Source: a virus
Virus record (IMG/VR): IMGVR_UViG_3300025012_000003
Direction: 5' to 3' (one strand)
DNA: 64,000 bases
Position 1 is the stretch's first letter, and each line of letters opens with the position of its first letter. The notes under the pieces are model-generated. The model was not told the origin of the DNA and searched no databases. It saw only the letters and a list, made by a program, of their open reading frames with translations. Of this stretch, positions 2,921 through 46,859 are shown piece after piece. The translations under genes and the position numbers were made by a program.

Positions 2921-3199
2921 CTATCTATTTCTTTTACTGTGTATATCTAATCTTCTTCCGTCTTCCATACAAGTAGTTCCTTTAAAGGTAGCCCAAGTTC
3001 TTGTTAGTATCTCTGCCATGTAATTATCTATAACTGATTCTTCCACTATGTCCCCTTCATTTACTTCTAAGTAGCTCCAAGAATTATCAGCCTGTCTAAT
3101 CATCTCTTTATATGTTGCACTCTTATTTCTATTTATATAACTTATTCTAACATAGTCAGAAGCTTTGATACTCTTCTTTACTTTTACTAAGTTAGCCAT
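2921..3199 (-). CDS. hypothetical protein
   Basis: AGGAG RBS; first gene after the promoter at 3233-3261. Confidence 0.75.
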   Translation of the reverse strand: MANLVKVKKSIKASDYVRISYINRNKSATYKEMIRQADNSWSYLEVNEGDIVEESVIDNYMAEILTRTWATFKGTTCMEDGRRLDIHSKRNR

Positions 3200-3232
3200 A
3201 ATGTATCTCCTATTGCTTAACCTTATATACTT

Positions 3233-3284
3233 AGGTTATCATATATAAGATATGAATACAAGTGTTTGTAAAGTTATTGTTACA
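3233..3284 (-). promoter_or_regulatory. sigma70-type promoter TTGTAT-17-TAACCT (extended -10) with upstream TGTAA-N8-TTACA palindrome
   Basis: -35 at 3256-3261, -10 at 3233-3238; palindrome 3267-3284. Confidence 0.65.
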
Positions 3285-3287
3285 ATA

Positions 3288-3428
3288 CTACTCGAGTTCT
3301 ATGTAGAAAGATATCCTATCTATAACTTTCTTGATTGCTCTTCTCATATCGTCGTCTTGTCTGTATCCGTATTCATTACTGAACTGAGTCAGGTCTTTCT
3401 TCAAAGCAGTTAAATCTTTATCTAACAC
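3288..3428 (-). CDS. hypothetical protein (46 aa, GTG start)
   Basis: AAGGAG RBS then GTG; hand-translated. Confidence 0.55.
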   Translation of the reverse strand: MLDKDLTALKKDLTQFSNEYGYRQDDDMRRAIKKVIDRISFYIELE

Positions 3429-3441
3429 AACTATCTCCTTA

Positions 3442-3606
3442 TTAATTTACTTTCTTGATTTGTTCTTTTAACTTATTGAAACAGGATTTACATAAGTTGA
3501 AAGTATATTCACCAGTAGGATTAATACTTATAGAATAAGATATAGTGTTCTCACATTCATAAACATTACAGATACATCTAGGATAATCATTACGAGTTAC
3601 TTTCAT
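3442..3606 (-). CDS. small Cys-rich hypothetical protein (54 aa)
   Basis: CIC...C...CKSC; hand-translated. Confidence 0.55.
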   Translation of the reverse strand: MKVTRNDYPRCICNVYECENTISYSISINPTGEYTFNLCKSCFNKLKEQIKKVN

Positions 3607-3610
3607 AATC

Positions 3611-3775
3611 TTATATCAATCCTTGCATCTTTAAAATTAACGGAACCAAACTTGTTGTATCTAATATAATCATTCCAAGTAATACATATAACAAAGAATT
3701 GTCCTGTAGATTCTTAAAAGCAGGAATAGCTATAAACAAATTTGCTAATATCAATAATGCTATTTCGAAATACAT
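3611..3775 (-). CDS. small membrane protein (54 aa)
   Basis: AAGGAG RBS; two hydrophobic segments. Confidence 0.6.
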   Translation of the reverse strand: MYFEIALLILANLFIAIPAFKNLQDNSLLYVLLGMIILDTTSLVPLILKMQGLI

Positions 3776-3824
3776 AATTATCTCCTTTTAAAGTTCGTCA
3801 TTTTTCTTAAGAGCCACAAGGTTC

Positions 3825-4070
3825 TTAACCGAATATTCTCAAAGTTCTGTAATCATTATAGTTATACTTAATATCTTGATAAATAGGTTTACCCTCAGAA
3901 GTTTTTGATTTATGGGTAATAGTTTTAATAGTATCTTCTTTAAGATATATAGCTTCTACTGAAGGACTGACAATTATATTAACTTCTTTATTCTTAAGTT
4001 TAGGAACTATGCCTTCTTGTTTTTCTATTAGGCTTACTACTTGTCTTAATTCTGTTAAACTCAGATACAT
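3825..4070 (-). CDS. hypothetical protein
   Basis: AAGGAG RBS. Confidence 0.7.
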   Translation of the reverse strand: MYLSLTELRQVVSLIEKQEGIVPKLKNKEVNIIVSPSVEAIYLKEDTIKTITHKSKTSEGKPIYQDIKYNYNDYRTLRIFG

Positions 4071-4080
4071 AATTGTCTCC

Positions 4081-4425
4081 TTAATCTACATTTAATACCT
4101 GTAATATTCTGTTGAGTTCTGCTTCAACTCTCTCTTTGAATTCGTTAGCTACTTCAGCACAATCATAATCAAAAGCAGGAATCCAACCTTCTCTTCCATT
4201 TTTCATTCCACGTTTAGTACCTCTATAATCACTTGTAAAACAAGGTAGAGGTTTTATTGGTGATAGTTTATTAACTACTATATTCTGATTACCTATTAAA
4301 GTAACTACAATATTAACACAAGATATTAAATTATAATCCCCATCCTTATAAGTTTCTTTTTCAGTTGTAACAGAAATTACTGCTACTTTATTTATTATAT
4401 TATTAAATATCTTTTCATAATTCAT
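4081..4425 (-). CDS. hypothetical protein
   Basis: GGAG RBS; own promoter at 4462-4490. Confidence 0.75.
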   Translation of the reverse strand: MNYEKIFNNIINKVAVISVTTEKETYKDGDYNLISCVNIVVTLIGNQNIVVNKLSPIKPLPCFTSDYRGTKRGMKNGREGWIPAFDYDCAEVANEFKERVEAELNRILQVLNVD

Positions 4426-4461
4426 ATTGTGTCTCCATAATCTATTTCGGTACTAATAATT

Positions 4462-4490
4462 AATATAGCATGTATGAAATAAGAAGTCAA
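4462..4490 (-). promoter_or_regulatory. sigma70-type promoter TTGACT-17-TATATT (extended -10)
   Basis: Exact 17 nt spacing, TG motif, 36 nt upstream of the ATG at 4425. Confidence 0.7.
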
Positions 4491-4542
4491 CATATTGTTA
4501 AAATTTATTAAGCTAAAGGTTTACTAGCGAATTAAACATATT

Positions 4543-4820
4543 GAATATAAAGAAAAAGCTTGATACCTTGACTATTAGTCAGCGGGTGGCAAGCTTACAA
4601 GAAATAGATTATGGAGATAATTGTAATAAAATGTGGGATTTTGTATCAACACGTCCCTGAAACCCCACGAAAATCGAGCCGTGGAATAGAAAGCTACAAT
4701 CTACCACGCACTGATTCAATCCTTGAACCAGTGGCTAACCTGTTGGTAGTACTCTAAAGTTTTAAGTACCCGCTACCTCGGAGCACTGTACACATATAAT
4801 AGTCAAGCTTTCTTATATTC
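4543..4820 (-). ncRNA. candidate structured non-coding RNA or cis-regulatory element, family unknown
   Basis: ORF-free, GC-richer intergenic block with a long closing stem (4543-4577/4797-4820), nested stem 4581-4587/4768-4774 and at least four internal hairpins; G.U pairs favour the minus strand. Confidence 0.55.
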
Positions 4821-4921
4821 TATTACATGCCGTTATACTATTACTATTGTTTTAAAGAAACTAATAGAACCGATAAACTATTAGAATGAGTGTATAGCAA
4901 TATAGAAGTTGTTATCGGTTT

Positions 4922-5191
4922 TTATTCTTGAGTTATTACTATCTCTTTAGTTATGATACCATCGTTTGACATTACCAGAATAGAATCAATGTCATCTATT
5001 AGTTTATCATTACTTATAGGTATTGCTATCAGTTGTGGCATAGGAGGAATCTGTCTCAACATAGTATGTGTTTTAATTCCTCTAGGTATGAGTTCTTTTA
5101 TCTCCCCTGCTTTTACTAATGTGTTTGCAAGTTTTATTAACTTCATTACTTCTGGTTCATTGTTATTTAAAGTGAGTACTATTCTTTCCAT
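4922..5191 (-). CDS. hypothetical protein
   Basis: AAGGAG RBS. Confidence 0.7.
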   Translation of the reverse strand: MERIVLTLNNNEPEVMKLIKLANTLVKAGEIKELIPRGIKTHTMLRQIPPMPQLIAIPISNDKLIDDIDSILVMSNDGIITKEIVITQE

Positions 5192-5208
5192 CTATTTCTC
5201 CTTATGAT

Positions 5209-5523
5209 TTAATAGGGTTGTCCGTCTGATATATTATCAAACTCTCCGTTGATATCGTATCTTCTTTTCTGATAGTTATCTGAGAGCATCATAGCAAAGT
5301 TAGCTATGTCGGCACACTTTTCTGATAGTTCATCTACTGAGGTATCCCCCATCGGATATATTTGTTTTAATAGTATAAGTCTTTTATCTAACTCATCCAG
5401 TAGGAACTTACGATTGCAGGGTTCCTCTGACCAATGGGTTTTATGCACGTTATCCATTAGTCTTTTAAACATTATGTTAGAGAAGTTATGTATTGATTTA
5501 ATTAAGTTGAGTGGTGTGTTCAT
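5209..5523 (-). CDS. hypothetical protein (possible dUTPase/MazG-like helical fold)
   Basis: LLDELD...ECADIANFAMM resembles the phage ExADxANxAMM helical family. Confidence 0.5.
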   Translation of the reverse strand: MNTPLNLIKSIHNFSNIMFKRLMDNVHKTHWSEEPCNRKFLLDELDKRLILLKQIYPMGDTSVDELSEKCADIANFAMMLSDNYQKRRYDINGEFDNISDGQPY

Positions 5524-5536
5524 CGTTTATCTCTCC

Positions 5537-5704
5537 TTATATTTCTTGACATCTATTACTATAACATTCTTCACATAGAGTTACTTCTATTTGTTCATCG
5601 TTTATCTCTTTGGCATAAGGGCAGTGAGTCTCTATCACAGTCTTGTCTTGGGTACCACAGTCTTGGCATGTTAAATATTCTTCTGGGATATTAATCTCTA
5701 CCAT
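5537..5704 (-). CDS. small Zn-finger-like protein (55 aa)
   Basis: CQDCG...CPY...LCEECY; hand-translated. Confidence 0.65.
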   Translation of the reverse strand: MVEINIPEEYLTCQDCGTQDKTVIETHCPYAKEINDEQIEVTLCEECYSNRCQEI

Positions 5705-6010
5705 TTATTCTTCCTCTAGTCTTATTGATATGTTACAGATGTCAGGTTCCCAATCTACTGAATGTAATTCACATCCATCATCCCATAGGTCTCCTACATG
5801 TTGTTTACATACGTGAGAGTATCTATCATAGATAGCTTTCACTCCGTCGGGAGGATAGACTATAGTATAGTCAGCATCTTTCTTACAGGGAATAAAGCAA
5901 CAATATTTAGTACCAGAAGGATTGTAGCAGATAGACCTATTTCCTGTTAGCCTATCTACCAGTCCACTCCAATAGAAACTTATGTAGGCAAATATATTAT
6001 TTATTTTCAT
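5705..6010 (-). CDS. hypothetical protein
   Basis: ORF directly abutting neighbours. Confidence 0.65.
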   Translation of the reverse strand: MKINNIFAYISFYWSGLVDRLTGNRSICYNPSGTKYCCFIPCKKDADYTIVYPPDGVKAIYDRYSHVCKQHVGDLWDDGCELHSVDWEPDICNISIRLEEE

Positions 6011-6520
6011 TTAGATTATATTAAATTTCTTAAGTATGTTATATAAATTATGAGGATTTACTACACTTGAGTTAGTATCAAATAATACTTTACAATGGAA
6101 TAAAGCATCTGTTACTAACTCAGAACAGAAGAACTTCTTCTCCGATTCTTTTGTTTTAATCTTTGAATTAATTCCATGAAGTCCAGACATCAAAGCTTGG
6201 TAGAAATCGTAAGGTCTACCATTCACATCATTGACAAAAGTTCTCAGGGCATTAGCATCAAACCTTTCTCTAGCACTTAGAGTTAGAGGGAAACATTCTT
6301 TACCTTGAGTTCTGTTTAATGCTTCGGATAGAGGAACTATCCTCACTCCCGCAGTTTGAGCTTCCAACATATTTTCAGAGTCAACTGCTATTCCCGCATG
6401 GGAATACTTAGACCAAGTAAATATACGAATAACTTGTCCCATTAAGTCAGCAGGTTCAAAGAAGATTACATCTCCCGCTTGTAATTTTGGATATTGTTTT
6501 TGTTTCTTACTGAATAACAT
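6011..6520 (-). CDS. permuted papain-like amidase (YaeF/YiiX, NlpC/P60 superfamily)
   Basis: GDVIFF...YSHAGI (His) before GRPYD...FFCSELV (Cys): the circularly permuted catalytic order. Confidence 0.85.
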   Translation of the reverse strand: MLFSKKQKQYPKLQAGDVIFFEPADLMGQVIRIFTWSKYSHAGIAVDSENMLEAQTAGVRIVPLSEALNRTQGKECFPLTLSARERFDANALRTFVNDVNGRPYDFYQALMSGLHGINSKIKTKESEKKFFCSELVTDALFHCKVLFDTNSSVVNPHNLYNILKKFNII

Positions 6521-6549
6521 TTCTATTCTCCTATTGTTTATATGATTTA

Positions 6550-6771
6550 TTATGTAGCATTGACAATAGTTTCATAAGACAACTGAACTTTAGTTGGGTC
6601 TAATGCTTGATAGTTTCCTTTGTCCTCGAAAGCAAATTCAACATTGTTTACTGTATATGTATTCTTTACTCCATGTATATCTGTTATAGATATTAAATCT
6701 CCCGCTCTTGGTAATAGTACTATGGTTAGATTATCAGCTACTACAGTTCCACCTACCACTAATTTCATCAT
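6550..6771 (-). CDS. hypothetical protein
   Basis: AGGAG RBS. Confidence 0.65.
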   Translation of the reverse strand: MMKLVVGGTVVADNLTIVLLPRAGDLISITDIHGVKNTYTVNNVEFAFEDKGNYQALDPTKVQLSYETIVNAT

Positions 6772-6795
6772 ATATCTTTCTCCTTTATTATTGTA

Positions 6796-7029
6796 TTATA
6801 TATCCCAGCTCACTTCTAATACTCTATCCGTCTCTGTTGTTTTTTGTATGGTTACTTTGTATCCTTGCTCTTGATAATGGGATACTATTTCATCAGATAA
6901 TGAAATAGGAATCTCATCTACTTTGATACTAAGTTTACCATAATGTACTCTACCTTCTATCTTATTATCAATGATAGCTATATTAGATTCTAATGTTTCT
7001 TTACGAACTCCTTCAGCAGATTTTGTCAT
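6796..7029 (-). CDS. hypothetical protein
   Basis: GGAGG RBS; abuts the upstream stop. Confidence 0.65.
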   Translation of the reverse strand: MTKSAEGVRKETLESNIAIIDNKIEGRVHYGKLSIKVDEIPISLSDEIVSHYQEQGYKVTIQKTTETDRVLEVSWDI

Positions 7030-7236
7030 CTAATCCTCCTTATAGTTTGATAGCATTACGTCATAGTCGCTGAAAGCGTATGAGAGTTTCACTATCAAAT
7101 CCCACGCTTCGTCAGAAGGAGCTACATCTTTTGACTCAAAGAAGTCTAGTATCTTTAATAGAGCCACTGCTTCTGTATTTGTTTCCAATGTTATGGTTAT
7201 GGGCTGAAATGATAATTCGTCTTGAGTTATTTTCAT
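7030..7236 (-). CDS. hypothetical protein
   Basis: Coupled to neighbours. Confidence 0.65.
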   Translation of the reverse strand: MKITQDELSFQPITITLETNTEAVALLKILDFFESKDVAPSDEAWDLIVKLSYAFSDYDVMLSNYKED

Positions 7237-7571
7237 CTTACCAGTTCCTCCAATACTTCAACAGAAACTTGAGGTAGCTTATAATTGGGGTCTTCCAACT
7301 CCCTAACCATTCTTCCAAAATTAATTATCTCTTTGATTGAATTTCTTATAGAAGATTTTATACTTGTATAAGCGATAGTAAACTCTGGATATAAATCTTG
7401 ATACCCAGTGCAATCGCTGTAAGTAATTCCCCACAAAAAATTAGATATGTCTATGGGTAACTTAGTATTAAGTAAAGTATTTTTAATGACTCTCTGATAC
7501 AGTCTTGGAAAATCATTAGACTTCTTTGAGTCTATTATCTTTTGGAAATCTCTAAGTGTGTAAATTTTCAT
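7233..7571 (-). CDS. hypothetical protein
   Basis: ATGA overlap with neighbours. Confidence 0.65.
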   Translation of the reverse strand: MKIYTLRDFQKIIDSKKSNDFPRLYQRVIKNTLLNTKLPIDISNFLWGITYSDCTGYQDLYPEFTIAYTSIKSSIRNSIKEIINFGRMVRELEDPNYKLPQVSVEVLEELVR

Positions 7572-22790: not shown

Positions 22791-24050
22791 CTAAAGTATC
22801 TGGGAATCAATAAATTCTCGAGTAATTATACAGTCGTCAGGTTTCTTGTCAATGCGGAAATTCCAATCAATAGCTCTACAGTGGGACATTCTATTATTCT
22901 TTGAGCTAAAGTCCTGACCCTCACAAGCTAATACTAATCCTAAGTATTCAGGATTTAGTGTGGGATTTCCATCATTATCTAATATTGTCATCTTTCTTCT
23001 TAAAGAATCTGTTATACCAGATATAGTTCCAATCCATTGTTCAGTTAATAATTCATCTTCTTCCTCAACATAACAAGAAACTTTAATGCCCCCTATTAGA
23101 TTCTGTACTGCTAATGCTGAATTCTTTTTAGGAAAGATAGAACCAGAAATAAAACAATCTATATCTTCATTTTTACTTCCTGTTAGGGTTCTCTTCATCT
23201 TAACTTGAACATGTCTCTTACGTGAAGTAGTAGCATAGTATTGTTCATTTAAATTCTTTAATACTAATCCTTCTCCGCCATTAGCTACTATCCTATCAAA
23301 GAACTCTTGTTTATTTATTATAGTACTTTCGGGTAATTCAAAAGGAGTTATCCCGTCAATTTTTTTCATAAAGCTAGTTAATAGTTGTCTGCGTTGTCTG
23401 AGTGTTTTAATCTTTAAGTCTTGATTATCAAACTCCAACATATCAAATACACAAAACTTTAAAGGATTACCATCCATCTGAATTTCTACTGCTCTCTCCG
23501 CATGGGAACCCAATATAGAAACAGTAGCATTAAGCTCTGTAGCAGAGAATGTTCCTCCCCTAGAAGTAGTATCAAGGGTTTTATTAAATACAAGAACTTC
23601 TGCATCCAGTATAAAAGATTGTTTGAACATTCCCCTATAACTCTGGGGAGTTCTAACTCTTCCATCTTTAGTTATTAATAATATCTTTTCCGTATAACAA
23701 TTAGGCAGGAAAGTTATATCTGATATATCCCTAGAGAAAAATTCAAATCCCCAATCTGGATGATAAGTTATGATACATCTTAATCCATCAATCTTGACTT
23801 CTCCTAACCAATCCTCGGATGTCAAGATATTTTTTTGTTCTTCTGGTTTAAGTTCCTTAAAAGAAAAACATAATTGAGGAGTATGTAATTCAAACAATCT
23901 TTTATACATACCCCATGTTTGAACTTTAGGATATTTATTATAATAATCTATTCCCAATATACGTTCTAATTCTTTATTAGTAGTCTTAGGATTAGATGGT
24001 ACGGGTATCCCCCGTACCTTGAAGTGCTGTAGTATTTCCTCCTTTTTCAT
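22791..24050 (-). CDS. lig: ATP-dependent DNA ligase
   Basis: EVKIDGLR (KxDG), LDAEV, FDML, EGLVLK, KMK. Confidence 0.9.
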   Translation of the reverse strand: MKKEEILQHFKVRGIPVPSNPKTTNKELERILGIDYYNKYPKVQTWGMYKRLFELHTPQLCFSFKELKPEEQKNILTSEDWLGEVKIDGLRCIITYHPDWGFEFFSRDISDITFLPNCYTEKILLITKDGRVRTPQSYRGMFKQSFILDAEVLVFNKTLDTTSRGGTFSATELNATVSILGSHAERAVEIQMDGNPLKFCVFDMLEFDNQDLKIKTLRQRRQLLTSFMKKIDGITPFELPESTIINKQEFFDRIVANGGEGLVLKNLNEQYYATTSRKRHVQVKMKRTLTGSKNEDIDCFISGSIFPKKNSALAVQNLIGGIKVSCYVEEEDELLTEQWIGTISGITDSLRRKMTILDNDGNPTLNPEYLGLVLACEGQDFSSKNNRMSHCRAIDWNFRIDKKPDDCIITREFIDSQIL

Positions 24051-44002: not shown

Positions 44003-44685
44003 TATTGTATCTCCATATTGGGTGTTTGTAAAAACATAGACTGCATCTCATCATAGTATGGAAGTCTTGTAGGACTTAAAGTAACTGTAATCTTAGTCCA
44101 ATAAGGTTGACCATCTGGAGTAAGGGTAGTGGAGTACTCAGGTCTAAATCCTTTAATTAAAAGATTCATAGCTCTGAACCATTGACCTATAGTTAATATT
44201 ACAGTTCCTTTCATGGGTTTTCTGTTGATACCTATATTATTACCATACTGAGCTAAGTTGACGGGTTGATATCCCCAATGATACTTTACAGCTACTGGTA
44301 CTCCCAACATAGGAGAGTTTTCTGGATAAATAGCTTGATACAATTTATTAACTATCTCAGTTGGTTTAATAGTACTGTTAGTTGCTATGATATAAAAACT
44401 TAGGTTAAATACTGGAATGTTAGCACCCGTCCATTGTTGGGTAGTATCTAAATGGTTTAAAATCTGTATATCACTACCAAGCCTAGCTAACCACTGATTA
44501 GCCTTAGTAGAGTACTCTCTCCCAAATAATTGGTCAGACCAATTAGCCTCATTCTGAAAATCAAAAGGTCCCTCAAGATATCCCAAAATAACATTACCTT
44601 GGTCTGGTTCTCCCCCAGTTTGTTTGGGTAATATTAATTTTACTTTTAACCTATCATCATTTATAACTCTATCAAAAATATTCAT
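44002..44685 (-). CDS. baseplate-tube junction protein (gp48/gp54-like)
   Basis: Tube-like fold pattern and position. Confidence 0.45.
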   Translation of the reverse strand: MNIFDRVINDDRLKVKLILPKQTGGEPDQGNVILGYLEGPFDFQNEANWSDQLFGREYSTKANQWLARLGSDIQILNHLDTTQQWTGANIPVFNLSFYIIATNSTIKPTEIVNKLYQAIYPENSPMLGVPVAVKYHWGYQPVNLAQYGNNIGINRKPMKGTVILTIGQWFRAMNLLIKGFRPEYSTTLTPDGQPYWTKITVTLSPTRLPYYDEMQSMFLQTPNMEIQ

Positions 44686-46859
44686 TATGCTATGTCTCCG
44701 TAATCTATATGATGATTAAGTAATTCGTTATCAGATTTTAATTTTCTATCTGATTTTTCTTTTGATGGCTGAGGGATAGGTATCATTTGAGCTTTATTAT
44801 CTGCAATGTTTCCTACTGGCTGGGACATAGATTTTTGTTCGGGCATAGTAGCCACCTCATTACCTATATTAGAAAACTCAGCGGGATTCTTTACCCACTT
44901 ATTTTGTCCTCCGACATTATAAGTTAGTACATCAGATGCGTTTAAATTTTTCATTTCCCCCGTAGTTTTATCTGAGGCTAGAACTTTATAATTTCCTTCT
45001 TTATCTTGGGTTATATTTTTGATATTATATTTATTTTTAAAGTTATCATAGTTAGTTGTATCCACTACTCCCCCCTTATTTGCTAAGGCTAACTTAGTAG
45101 TATCTACATTACTAGCATCTTTCATGAACTTCTGTTGTTGCTCCCAAATAGAAGGAGTTCCTACAGCAGATATCTTATTACCAACACTTTTATTATATTG
45201 TTCCGTTGCTTTAATTGGGTCTATGATGTTCCCCTTTGTATCTCTAACTTTTCTATGAACAACAGATTGTCCTTGTCCTACTCCTCTAACTCTTCCCGTG
45301 GTTCCAGAACTTCCTAGAACTCCCCCCACGGGAACCACGTCCCCCACTTTTAAATTGGTGCCACTTAAATGTGCTACAGATTCTGTAGTCCCTTTAGGAT
45401 TTTTCACTTTTACAAACTTACCTGATATTCCCTTTCCCAGAGAATCTACAGAAACCACTGTTCCTCCTCCAAGTGCCGACTTTACTGGAGTTCCGTAGGG
45501 TTGAGCTACATCGATAGCACCATGTTTTATGGGTTTACCACTTTTATCATAGCCTCTAATGCTACTAAAAGTATCTGTAAGAGAAGAACCTTTAGGAAAA
45601 ATATTTTTTAAGGATTGAAAAAGACCTTTACCTATTCCAGTATACTCTCCTTCTACTTGTTTTGGGGTCTTCCCTTCTCTTTTAGCCATTGCATCTATGC
45701 CTTTACTAGCACTATTGGTAGCATTTCCTAGAGCTATCCCTCCTCCTACCACTAAGGCTCCTCCTGCTAAATACGGAAGTAAGGGGGCTAAAGCTCCCGC
45801 TGCTGCTGTTAGTTTTGGTAAATCCGAAGCAGGATTGAAATTTTTTACTATATCCCCAACTCCCTTACCCATCATTTCCGAAGCAGAAAAAACAGCAGGA
45901 CTAGCTCCTCTGAGCATAGGATTCTCTGCCATACCCAAAGCAGCGGTCTTTCCTGTCATAACAACTGCAAAATCTGCTAAGTCTGCTGTAGTTTTTTTAA
46001 GTTCCCTAGCTAAATGGGATACGGCTCCGTTTTCGTCGCCCTTACCTTTTCCTTTACCTCCTTGGTCAGATTGGTCTTCTAAGAAACCTTCTATCTTATC
46101 GTTACTTCTTTGATTTTCCGTAAGAAGTTTAACTACTTCTTCTAAAGATACATTAGCTTCCTGAAGTTCATTATCTAATTTCTTATAAGGTGCAAAAGTA
46201 GCAGTCTTGAAATCCTTCTCATTTTCTGCATAATATTCAAGATTCTTATCTAACTCTACTAATATATTAACTATTTTCTCGTCATTAAGTTTACCTGATT
46301 TTAAAGTGTTATCCAATAATTCTTTCAATTGTTTACTTAGTGCTAAGTCTTCATCAGAATAATCTTTTAAGAAACTAAATAAATCCATTTTAAAATCATT
46401 ACTTACTTTCTCATCTTTAACTATTTTCTTAAAATTATTCAATATATCTTTTATAGGAACTCCTATCTGTTCTTGACTATCGGATAAAGCATCCTTCATA
46501 GTTTGTACAAACTTAGCAAGTTCTTTTTTCTCGTCTAATTGTAATCTTTGTCCAGCCACATATCTATCTAAAGTTTTTTTAAAGTTTCCATCAATCTTAG
46601 TCATTAAGTCTATTAATTTTAAAAAACCTTTGTCATCATTTAAACTTTCTTCTCTTCCTTTTTTACTGGAAACTTTATCCTTATTATAAGAATCCTCTAA
46701 AAGTTTATAATAAAGAACCATCTGTTTTACAAGTTTATCCAATTTATCATTAGTAGCTTTTTCCCTTTGCTCCATACCAGAAAACATCTTCTTCATAGAA
46801 GATGTTAAATCCAAAAAAGGATTATTTTTTATTGGTTCTTTTGGGTCATTCGTAGCCAT
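44685..46859 (-). CDS. tape-measure / hub protein with peptidase M23 domain
   Basis: Long helical N-half, Ala/Gly-rich hydrophobic middle, HGAID...AHLS...VGDVV M23 motifs. Confidence 0.75.
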   Translation of the reverse strand: MATNDPKEPIKNNPFLDLTSSMKKMFSGMEQREKATNDKLDKLVKQMVLYYKLLEDSYNKDKVSSKKGREESLNDDKGFLKLIDLMTKIDGNFKKTLDRYVAGQRLQLDEKKELAKFVQTMKDALSDSQEQIGVPIKDILNNFKKIVKDEKVSNDFKMDLFSFLKDYSDEDLALSKQLKELLDNTLKSGKLNDEKIVNILVELDKNLEYYAENEKDFKTATFAPYKKLDNELQEANVSLEEVVKLLTENQRSNDKIEGFLEDQSDQGGKGKGKGDENGAVSHLARELKKTTADLADFAVVMTGKTAALGMAENPMLRGASPAVFSASEMMGKGVGDIVKNFNPASDLPKLTAAAGALAPLLPYLAGGALVVGGGIALGNATNSASKGIDAMAKREGKTPKQVEGEYTGIGKGLFQSLKNIFPKGSSLTDTFSSIRGYDKSGKPIKHGAIDVAQPYGTPVKSALGGGTVVSVDSLGKGISGKFVKVKNPKGTTESVAHLSGTNLKVGDVVPVGGVLGSSGTTGRVRGVGQGQSVVHRKVRDTKGNIIDPIKATEQYNKSVGNKISAVGTPSIWEQQQKFMKDASNVDTTKLALANKGGVVDTTNYDNFKNKYNIKNITQDKEGNYKVLASDKTTGEMKNLNASDVLTYNVGGQNKWVKNPAEFSNIGNEVATMPEQKSMSQPVGNIADNKAQMIPIPQPSKEKSDRKLKSDNELLNHHIDYGDIA

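Follow-up and report, generated by a model that had tools for sequence, protein, structure and literature searches.

The locus described here lies in a 64,000-nt stretch of viral DNA (hereafter the window). Its source is a complete IMG/VR virus record of 190,151 bp, with 31% GC and direct terminal repeats, in which the window takes up bases 95994-159993. The long ORFs of the window are all on the minus strand, and because a PolA, a DnaB-type helicase, a ligase and a tail sheath are encoded among them, we assign the phage to the large myoviruses. The phage is uncultured, and the sequencing runs with the same DNA are groundwater metagenomes from several studies. We found no integrase in its genome and no sign of a temperate lifestyle, and it encodes no Hfq. 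The inverted-repeat locus itself occupies a 496-nt gap (4426-4921) bordered by small ORFs without known family (searches of the ORFs neighbouring the locus gave no Pfam or PHROG family), and comparison of the locus with the phage GenBank collection returned no match, nor did ARAGORN find anything in it. Beyond the window, some 29 kb upstream of the locus in genome coordinates, ARAGORN reports 15 tRNA genes followed by a tmRNA with the tag GNNTVSLDFGRKMALVA (genome positions 70060-71527), and together with a separate tRNA-Trp at 32.5 kb of the genome this makes 16 tRNAs in all. Table 1 lists the features of the gap in the order in which the minus strand reads them.

Table 1. Features of the gap between genes 4922-5191 and 4081-4425 in minus-strand order, followed by the sites of the leader motif shared with other genes (window coordinates throughout).
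Feature	Position	Strand	Sequence
Stop codon of gene 4922-5191	4924-4922	-	
Hairpin directly after this stop codon	4920-4868	-	AACCGAUAA pairs with UUAUCGGUU
GC-enriched scaffold	~4831-4635	-	
Variable single-stranded linker	~4634-4618	-	
17-mer, candidate seed	4617-4601	-	RNA reads UCUCCAUAAUCUAUUUC
Intrinsic terminator	4596-4544	-	
AT-rich stretch and promoter-like site	4490-4462	-	TTGACT, 17-nt spacer, TG-n-TATATT
Leader of ~30 nt with the target 17-mer	4448-4432	-	
ATG of gene 4081-4425	4425	-	
Leader motif sites in the window	4444, 4088, 44707	coding	TAGATTA-N1-2-GGAG
Leader motif sites upstream of the window	-75802, -94344	coding	TAGATTA-N1-2-GGAG

A first-pass annotation of this DNA had reported that 4601-4617 is the exact reverse complement of 4432-4448, and our repeat search returns precisely this pair, with 17/17 nt (100%) complementary and 152 nt between the arms. 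The downstream arm is, as was also stated then, the leader and ribosome-binding site (RBS) of gene 4081-4425, for it holds GGAGA ahead of the ATG. No further copy of the 17-mer was found in the window at up to two mismatches. In the whole genome we count two perfect inverted repeats of at least 17 nt with a spacing of 40-600 nt, where 0.025 are expected per genome from Markov-1 (dinucleotide) resamples of the 190-kb sequence; the 17-nt repeat is real and non-random. Its edges are sharp, and similarity beyond the arms is absent. The genome's sole other perfect spaced repeat of at least 17 nt is a 19-nt one (GTATAAAAGATTGTTTGAA and its complement, window 23609-23627 and 23890-23908, with ~260 nt between the arms) that lies wholly within the ATP-dependent DNA ligase ORF 22791-24050, and a perfect 16-nt inverted repeat (window 7133-7148 and 7518-7533) is found inside the adjacent small ORFs 7030-7236 and 7233-7571.

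For comparison we recovered five related contigs and one read-derived variant. Two of the contigs, L017 (the same contig as L002 and L023, ~97-99% identity) and L016 (~93%), cover the whole module and the leader; L015 (the same contig as L020, ~93%) covers the module as far as ~4495, L018 is of the L016 type and ends 6 nt into the 17-mer, and L025 (~92%) ends within the scaffold at 4666. The sixth, from wastewater, covers 4480-4641 and 4658-4831; it derives from two 'RNA-Seq cDNA' runs that possibly contain DNA, and it is used here as sequence variants only. Searches for distant relatives by way of the flanking proteins, with a scaffold 17-mer in IMG/VR and with a 19-mer in the JGI metagenomes returned only sequences of ~92% identity or more, and three further candidates (L021, L022 and L024) were set aside as chance matches in bacterial coding DNA. 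Four independently assembled contigs, namely L015, L018 (at 4612), L019 (at ~4552) and L025, end inside the ~400-nt module, likely because co-occurring strains share identical stretches.

The gene behind the downstream arm is on the minus strand and encodes a 114-aa orphan protein (AlphaFold2 mean pLDDT 48), for which we found no Pfam or PHROG family, no Atlas match and homologues only in its own lineage. Between the arms lies a sigma-70-like promoter site for the downstream operon, scoring 10/12, which is identical in L016, L017 and L019 (coverage by the wastewater contig ends at 4480, and L015 ends just short of the site). Because this predicted promoter is located between the arms, an mRNA begun there would be without the upstream arm, in agreement with the first-pass view that the gene's own promoter yields mRNA lacking the segment, and the Shine-Dalgarno (SD) sequence of such an mRNA is predicted to be largely open. 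The leader carries a motif, TAGATTA-N1-2-GGAG, of which the coding strand holds five copies against 0.5 expected, all of them real RBS leaders and one of them serving a 724-aa M23-peptidase protein (44685-46859), while the sole plus-strand copy is the seed arm. The stretch between terminator and promoter also contains a minus-strand direct repeat, CAATATGTT(G/T)A(C/A)TTC, at 4483-4497 and 4529-4543 (46 nt apart), with the -35 box inside one copy, and positions 4480-4559 are identical in all relatives that cover them, the wastewater variant included.

On the minus strand an intrinsic terminator starts 4 nt past the 17-mer. Its hairpin, AAGCUUG...CAAGCUU (4596-4556), has a folding energy of -15.0 kcal/mol and is followed by the run UUUCUUUAUAUU; a consensus terminator scan did not flag the 4596-4544 element. 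In the wastewater variant this hairpin has been rewritten by seven substitutions and 11 deleted nt, with the pair 4590-4562 going from G-C to A-U, and what results is a stem of 13 continuous base pairs capped by a tetraloop (-15.9 kcal/mol), with the same U-tract at its end, so that a stable hairpin and U-tract of unchanged shape have been kept on the minus strand through the rewriting. The wastewater hairpin reaches only -7.1 kcal/mol on the plus strand, because four of its pairs are G.U. Additional support comes through one-sided changes at 4712, 4643 and 4623 in the relatives, each of which gives a G.U pair on the minus strand and an A.C mismatch on the plus strand. Considering that both the rewritten hairpin and the G.U changes fit only the minus strand, we conclude that the element probably specifies a minus-strand RNA ending at an intrinsic terminator, whose transcription we infer from these patterns of variation. 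The same terminator and one-sided changes give computational support to the earlier proposal that the segment is part of a structured minus-strand RNA. With a terminator placed between the segment and its target, the relevant modes of action would be in trans, or in cis only on a read-through RNA.

The scaffold preceding the seed has a GC content of 0.44-0.49 against 0.31 in the genome and folding z-scores of -2.4 to -4.4, and homology with the wastewater relative stops at 4831, its upstream edge. It exists in one copy in the genome, its inner 111 nt likewise being single-copy, and no Rfam family matched in window 3000-7000 at E<=1 or in 4530-4850 at E<=10. The scaffold is non-coding, since L015, L016 and L018 carry a 1-nt indel in it, and the same indel rules out the overlapping ORFs 4611-4757 (plus) and 4609-4719 (minus). 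Within an 18-pair helix we found one compensatory pair (4811-4690, A-U to G-C); the single-sequence minimum free energy (MFE) fold and the RNAalifold consensus disagree on the fold of the scaffold as a whole. Two other elements of predicted structure were rejected, namely the outermost helix (4828-4818/4630-4620), which breaks in the relatives, and the long-range closing stems (4567-4577/4797-4807 and 4581-4587/4768-4774), which are destroyed in the wastewater variant without compensation. A promoter scan found no sigma-70-like promoter upstream of the scaffold, and a promoter-like site at 4649-4620, which would start the RNA at the seed, was rejected because its -10 element is not conserved in the relatives. 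In L016 the hairpin that precedes the scaffold has gained a mismatch, and one of its C-G pairs has become U-A; as an A-run precedes this hairpin and a U-rich run trails it, it could terminate transcription either way, and it is possibly the terminator of the upstream operon or a 5' boundary element. The wastewater cDNA run X20 yielded a contig of 157 nt and depth 13 that spans only the scaffold core (4658-4812), with nothing over 4500-4654 where the seed and terminator lie; this is perhaps a sign of a stable processed core RNA, perhaps an accident of assembly. The other piece from this run (38 nt at 4391-4428, five mismatches) looks unrelated.

The 17-mer is predicted to be exposed. In a 291-nt model of the minus-strand RNA (4831-4541) it is unpaired in the MFE structure, its bases are open with a mean probability of 0.79, freeing it costs 0.7 kcal/mol, and it is single-stranded in every fold model, the RNAalifold consensus included, so that prediction upholds the earlier impression of an unpaired segment. 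In a duplex scan limited to initiation regions, we scored it on the coding strand against 236 SD-bearing start regions, among which the leader of the neighbouring gene ranks best at -24.0 kcal/mol, ~6 SD from the mean (mean -8.0, SD 2.7) and ahead of a runner-up at -18.0. As a group, the eight downstream-operon starts outscore the remainder (Mann-Whitney p = 7e-4), an advantage that is due in part to the shared leader motif. The first-pass annotation had extended the match to the RBS of gene 3611-3775; a 10-nt match does exist there, but its -7.7 kcal/mol is at background level and the extension is not conserved in L016. We also scanned the genome for upstream anti-RBS segments and found that upstream regions (-12.4) and controls (-12.6) score alike, this locus being the single outlier, and the layout is therefore not a general design of the phage. 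In longer RNAs of 496 and 423 nt the long-range 17-bp stem between the two arms is part of the MFE structure with P = 1.0, and the predicted probability that the SD is paired with the segment is 1.0 as well, which supports the earlier suggestion that the segment is able to block this RBS in cis upon read-through.

Across the relatives the two arms have behaved differently. The upstream 17-mer is invariant in all four relatives with full coverage of it (L017, L016, L015 and the wastewater contig), and the 6 nt of it reached by L018 are also unchanged, although all relatives are at least ~92% identical and this invariance is consequently weak evidence. In the flanking linker 7/20 positions vary, versus 0 in the 17-mer, a contrast of about p = 0.008 if sites are independent, with the caveat that the clustered linker changes may be one event. 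On the target side, neither L016 nor L017 has gene 4081-4425, and their leader, GAAATAGAT-AAGGAGA, stands ahead of the homologue of gene 3825-4070. This target arm has one deletion and one substitution with no compensation in the seed, so that 9 bp and 5 bp remain, separated by a small internal loop. In trans, the predicted duplex reaches -25.2 kcal/mol with the window leader and -16.2 kcal/mol with the L016/L017 leader, and the cis probability of SD pairing is predicted to be 0.73 in L017 and 0.26 in L016. The window-type leader is also present in L019 and in a 517-nt contig of run X5 that includes both arms and matches the window throughout, and the perfectly matched gene 4081-4425 is confined to the window-type lineage. 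A co-variation of the segment with its target RBS, or its exchange in related phages, had been raised at first pass, and neither is seen, as the target arm changed to 9+5 bp while the seed stayed constant. Genes 4922-5704 are in turn absent from L015, L016 and L018, so the module persists amid exchange of its flanking genes on either side, and it recurs in a wastewater habitat. The first cassette junction falls at near-identical RBS leaders, TAGATTA(A/T)GGAGACA, and the arrangement of the contigs suggests that accessory cassettes (4065-4448 and 4922-5704) may be exchanged by recombination at RBS micro-homology.

Taken together, we favor a reading in which a locally encoded RNA carries out functional anti-RBS pairing, in trans as its main mode and additionally in cis on read-through transcripts, and we would give this reading about even chances. 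The minus-strand RNA would consist of scaffold, linker, exposed seed and intrinsic terminator, and it may be made independently, with a 5' end of its own, or as the 3' end of the transcript of the upstream operon. Its seed would pair with the leader and SD of gene 4081-4425 and thereby block binding of the 30S subunit, the terminated RNA acting intermolecularly on mRNA begun at 4490-4462. An intermolecular main mode is proposed since both the terminator and the target gene's own promoter separate seed and target. In a transcript that reads through the terminator, the two arms could fold into the 17-bp stem and hide the same RBS, which would serve as a fail-safe, and weaker pairing with a few other TAGATTA-N-GGAGA leaders may occur. 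In favor of this reading count the rarity of such a repeat by chance, the exposure and top target rank of the 17-mer, its constancy beside a variable linker, and the persistence of the module amid gene exchange and in a second habitat. Several findings speak against it: the promoter scan gave no sigma-70-like promoter upstream of the scaffold and no conserved one inside it, the target arm changed in L016 and L017 without compensation, the perfectly matched gene is limited to the window-type lineage, no reason is apparent for a scaffold of ~190 nt on a pairing RNA, and the repeat is as sharp-edged as would be expected if a common RBS leader had recently been copied in inverted orientation.

The last of these findings leads to a historical by-product, an explanation we regard as unlikely but as deserving most attention after the anti-RBS reading. 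Here the upstream arm would be an inverted copy of the common RBS leader left behind by cassette shuffling, a frequent event at these RBS micro-homologies, without any regulatory role, and the structured RNA would have some other job. A perfect repeat with no similarity outside its arms is what such a copy would look like, and the surroundings provide the means for it, in that the indel of gene 4081-4425 is bounded by near-identical leaders, genes 4922-5704 form another indel, and the leader motif is present at 5 genes. Moreover, the relatives manage with 9+5 bp, and the anti-RBS design is found nowhere else in the genome. Yet the arm has remained invariant though the adjacent linker varies, and it is placed exactly in an accessible stretch beside a terminator. 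A neutral relic should also have decayed or been lost in the wastewater relative, whose neighbouring hairpin has been rewritten.

Slightly less probable than the by-product, in our estimation, is an insulation in cis alone, of the type known from T4 gene e, in which the arm would matter only when the terminator is read through and translation would proceed only from mRNA of the gene's own promoter. The stem predicted with P = 1.0 in the MFE structures of both longer RNAs and the promoter inside its loop fit this well, and there is precedent for it in the T4 genes e, soc, 49 and I-TevI (PMC3014915). The stem is marginal in the relatives, however, where P drops to 0.26-0.73, and few long transcripts are to be expected at all, because a conserved strong terminator separates the arms. 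The anti-RBS reading with a trans main mode retains this cis effect as its secondary part.

Two further explanations give the scaffold the leading role. In the first, which we consider improbable, the ~190-nt scaffold would bring a protein of phage or host origin (nuclease, chaperone or ribosome-associated factor) to UAGAUUA-N-GGAGA mRNAs and so shut off a five-gene regulon. T4 RegB cleaves early mRNAs within GGAG, and if true, scaffold recruitment would be an RNA counterpart of RegB that addresses a regulon instead of a single neighbour. In the second, to which we attach still less credence, the element is riboswitch-like or a protein-dependent attenuator, the scaffold sensing a ligand or protein and controlling the terminator, with the 17-mer as part of the expression platform. 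A conserved scaffold followed by a terminator of variable sequence and conserved shape is typical of such devices, and the groundwater variants would allow portions of the terminator to pair with the scaffold through the long-range closing stems (-16.0 and -14.2 kcal/mol). These alternative pairings fall, uncompensated, to -8.2 and -4.4 kcal/mol in the wastewater variant; in addition a good promoter separates the terminator from the gene, the downstream gene differs among relatives, and no Rfam riboswitch matches.

Turning from RNA to DNA, it is very unlikely that the arms are a pair of protein-binding operators (looping over ~169 bp) or that they mark a miniature mobile element's two ends, bracketing the promoter. 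Identical inverted sites do flank a promoter, and a weak promoter-like site on the plus strand (4594-4621) overlaps with the upstream arm (4601-4617), but the sequence lacks palindromic symmetry, the relatives have one arm in degenerate form, and there is neither a further copy in the genome nor a target-site duplication in the flanks, as a miniature inverted-repeat element would lead one to expect. The least credible explanation is the invertible promoter proposed as an alternative at first pass, in which the arms would be recombination sites and 4449-4600 would flip to switch gene 4081-4425: 17-bp inverted repeats do bracket a promoter-bearing segment of 152 bp and several related contigs break within the module, but these breaks fit co-occurring strains, the arms are imperfect in L016 and L017, every assembly including the independent 517-nt contig across both arms has one and the same orientation with the inverted form of 4449-4600 seen in none, strand-switch joints were absent from four runs (kept as contigs, hence of limited power), and the lack of a recombinase noted in the window extends to the complete 190-kb genome, where neither serine nor tyrosine recombinases (PF00239, PF00589) were found with models that do score in control genomes, although a host enzyme might act in their place.

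Among known systems, one of the closest is the c4 RNA of phages P1 and P7 (immI operon), which is described in PMC8198154, citing Citron & Schuster 1990, as an antisense RNA encoded upstream on the same strand and directed against the RBS of the next gene. As far as that description goes, both the geometry and the predicted duplex are alike here, in that an RNA encoded upstream on the strand of its target would pair over the RBS of the next gene, and in both cases the complementarity appears as an inverted repeat in the DNA because antisense RNA and target share a strand. Our element nevertheless falls outside the c4 family, since it matches neither the Rfam C4 model nor any other. c4 has two short complementary segments, whereas we find one segment of 17 nt together with a scaffold of ~190 nt, a terminator of its own and a separate target promoter, and this phage, being without integrase, gives no sign of a temperate lifestyle.

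The second precedent is T4, where the RBSs of genes e, soc, 49 and I-TevI are hidden in long transcripts and each gene's own promoter lies inside the structure (PMC3014915). Similar to gene e, the SD at our locus is predicted to be held in a helix in upstream-initiated transcripts (P 1.0 in the window, with the lower values given above for L017 and L016), and a predicted promoter of its own (10/12 plus TG) lies downstream of the 5' strand of that helix. The helix differs from that of gene e in being long-range, with a 152-nt loop that contains an intrinsic terminator, and in that its upstream strand belongs to a conserved structured RNA.

In its general build the predicted RNA also resembles base-pairing small RNAs. 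These, including the ones derived from 3' UTRs, have a single-stranded seed beside a Rho-independent terminator, and the likeness extends to a structured 5' part, an accessible conserved seed, a terminator hairpin with U-tail and a target in the SD region. What sets our element apart from them is the perfect complementarity over 17 nt, an adjacent target on the same strand, an unusually long scaffold and the absence of a phage-encoded Hfq. A conserved scaffold followed by a short target-complementary segment is likewise found in the guide RNAs of TnpB, IscB, TldR and CRISPR systems, and the first-pass annotation had likened the element to a scaffold-plus-guide RNA. A programmable RNA of this kind is unsupported, given the single scaffold copy and the lack of an RNA-guided protein; an effector was found neither nearby nor in the genome, where the search gave only a sub-threshold 14-bit zinc-ribbon match in a 106-aa ORF away from the locus, and the invariant segment does not track its changed target.

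We regard the RNA as previously undescribed and restricted to its lineage, with an anti-RBS function as the plausible reading and the more exotic readings as not supported. To our knowledge regulatory RNAs in large lytic phages are scarcely charted, and the locus offers an unusually clean case, with one perfect seed-target pair, a defined predicted terminator and a defined predicted target promoter, set in an accessory region with gene exchange at RBS micro-homologies. If functional, it would let the phage keep one regulator while swapping the gene under its control, and it would add a lineage-specific RNA family absent from Rfam though no new principle. It is a new example of a known regulatory principle and not a new kind of system, one that combines the logic of c4, an antisense RNA encoded upstream of its target on the same strand, with that of T4 gene e, in which the RBS is hidden in long transcripts and a promoter lies within the structure.
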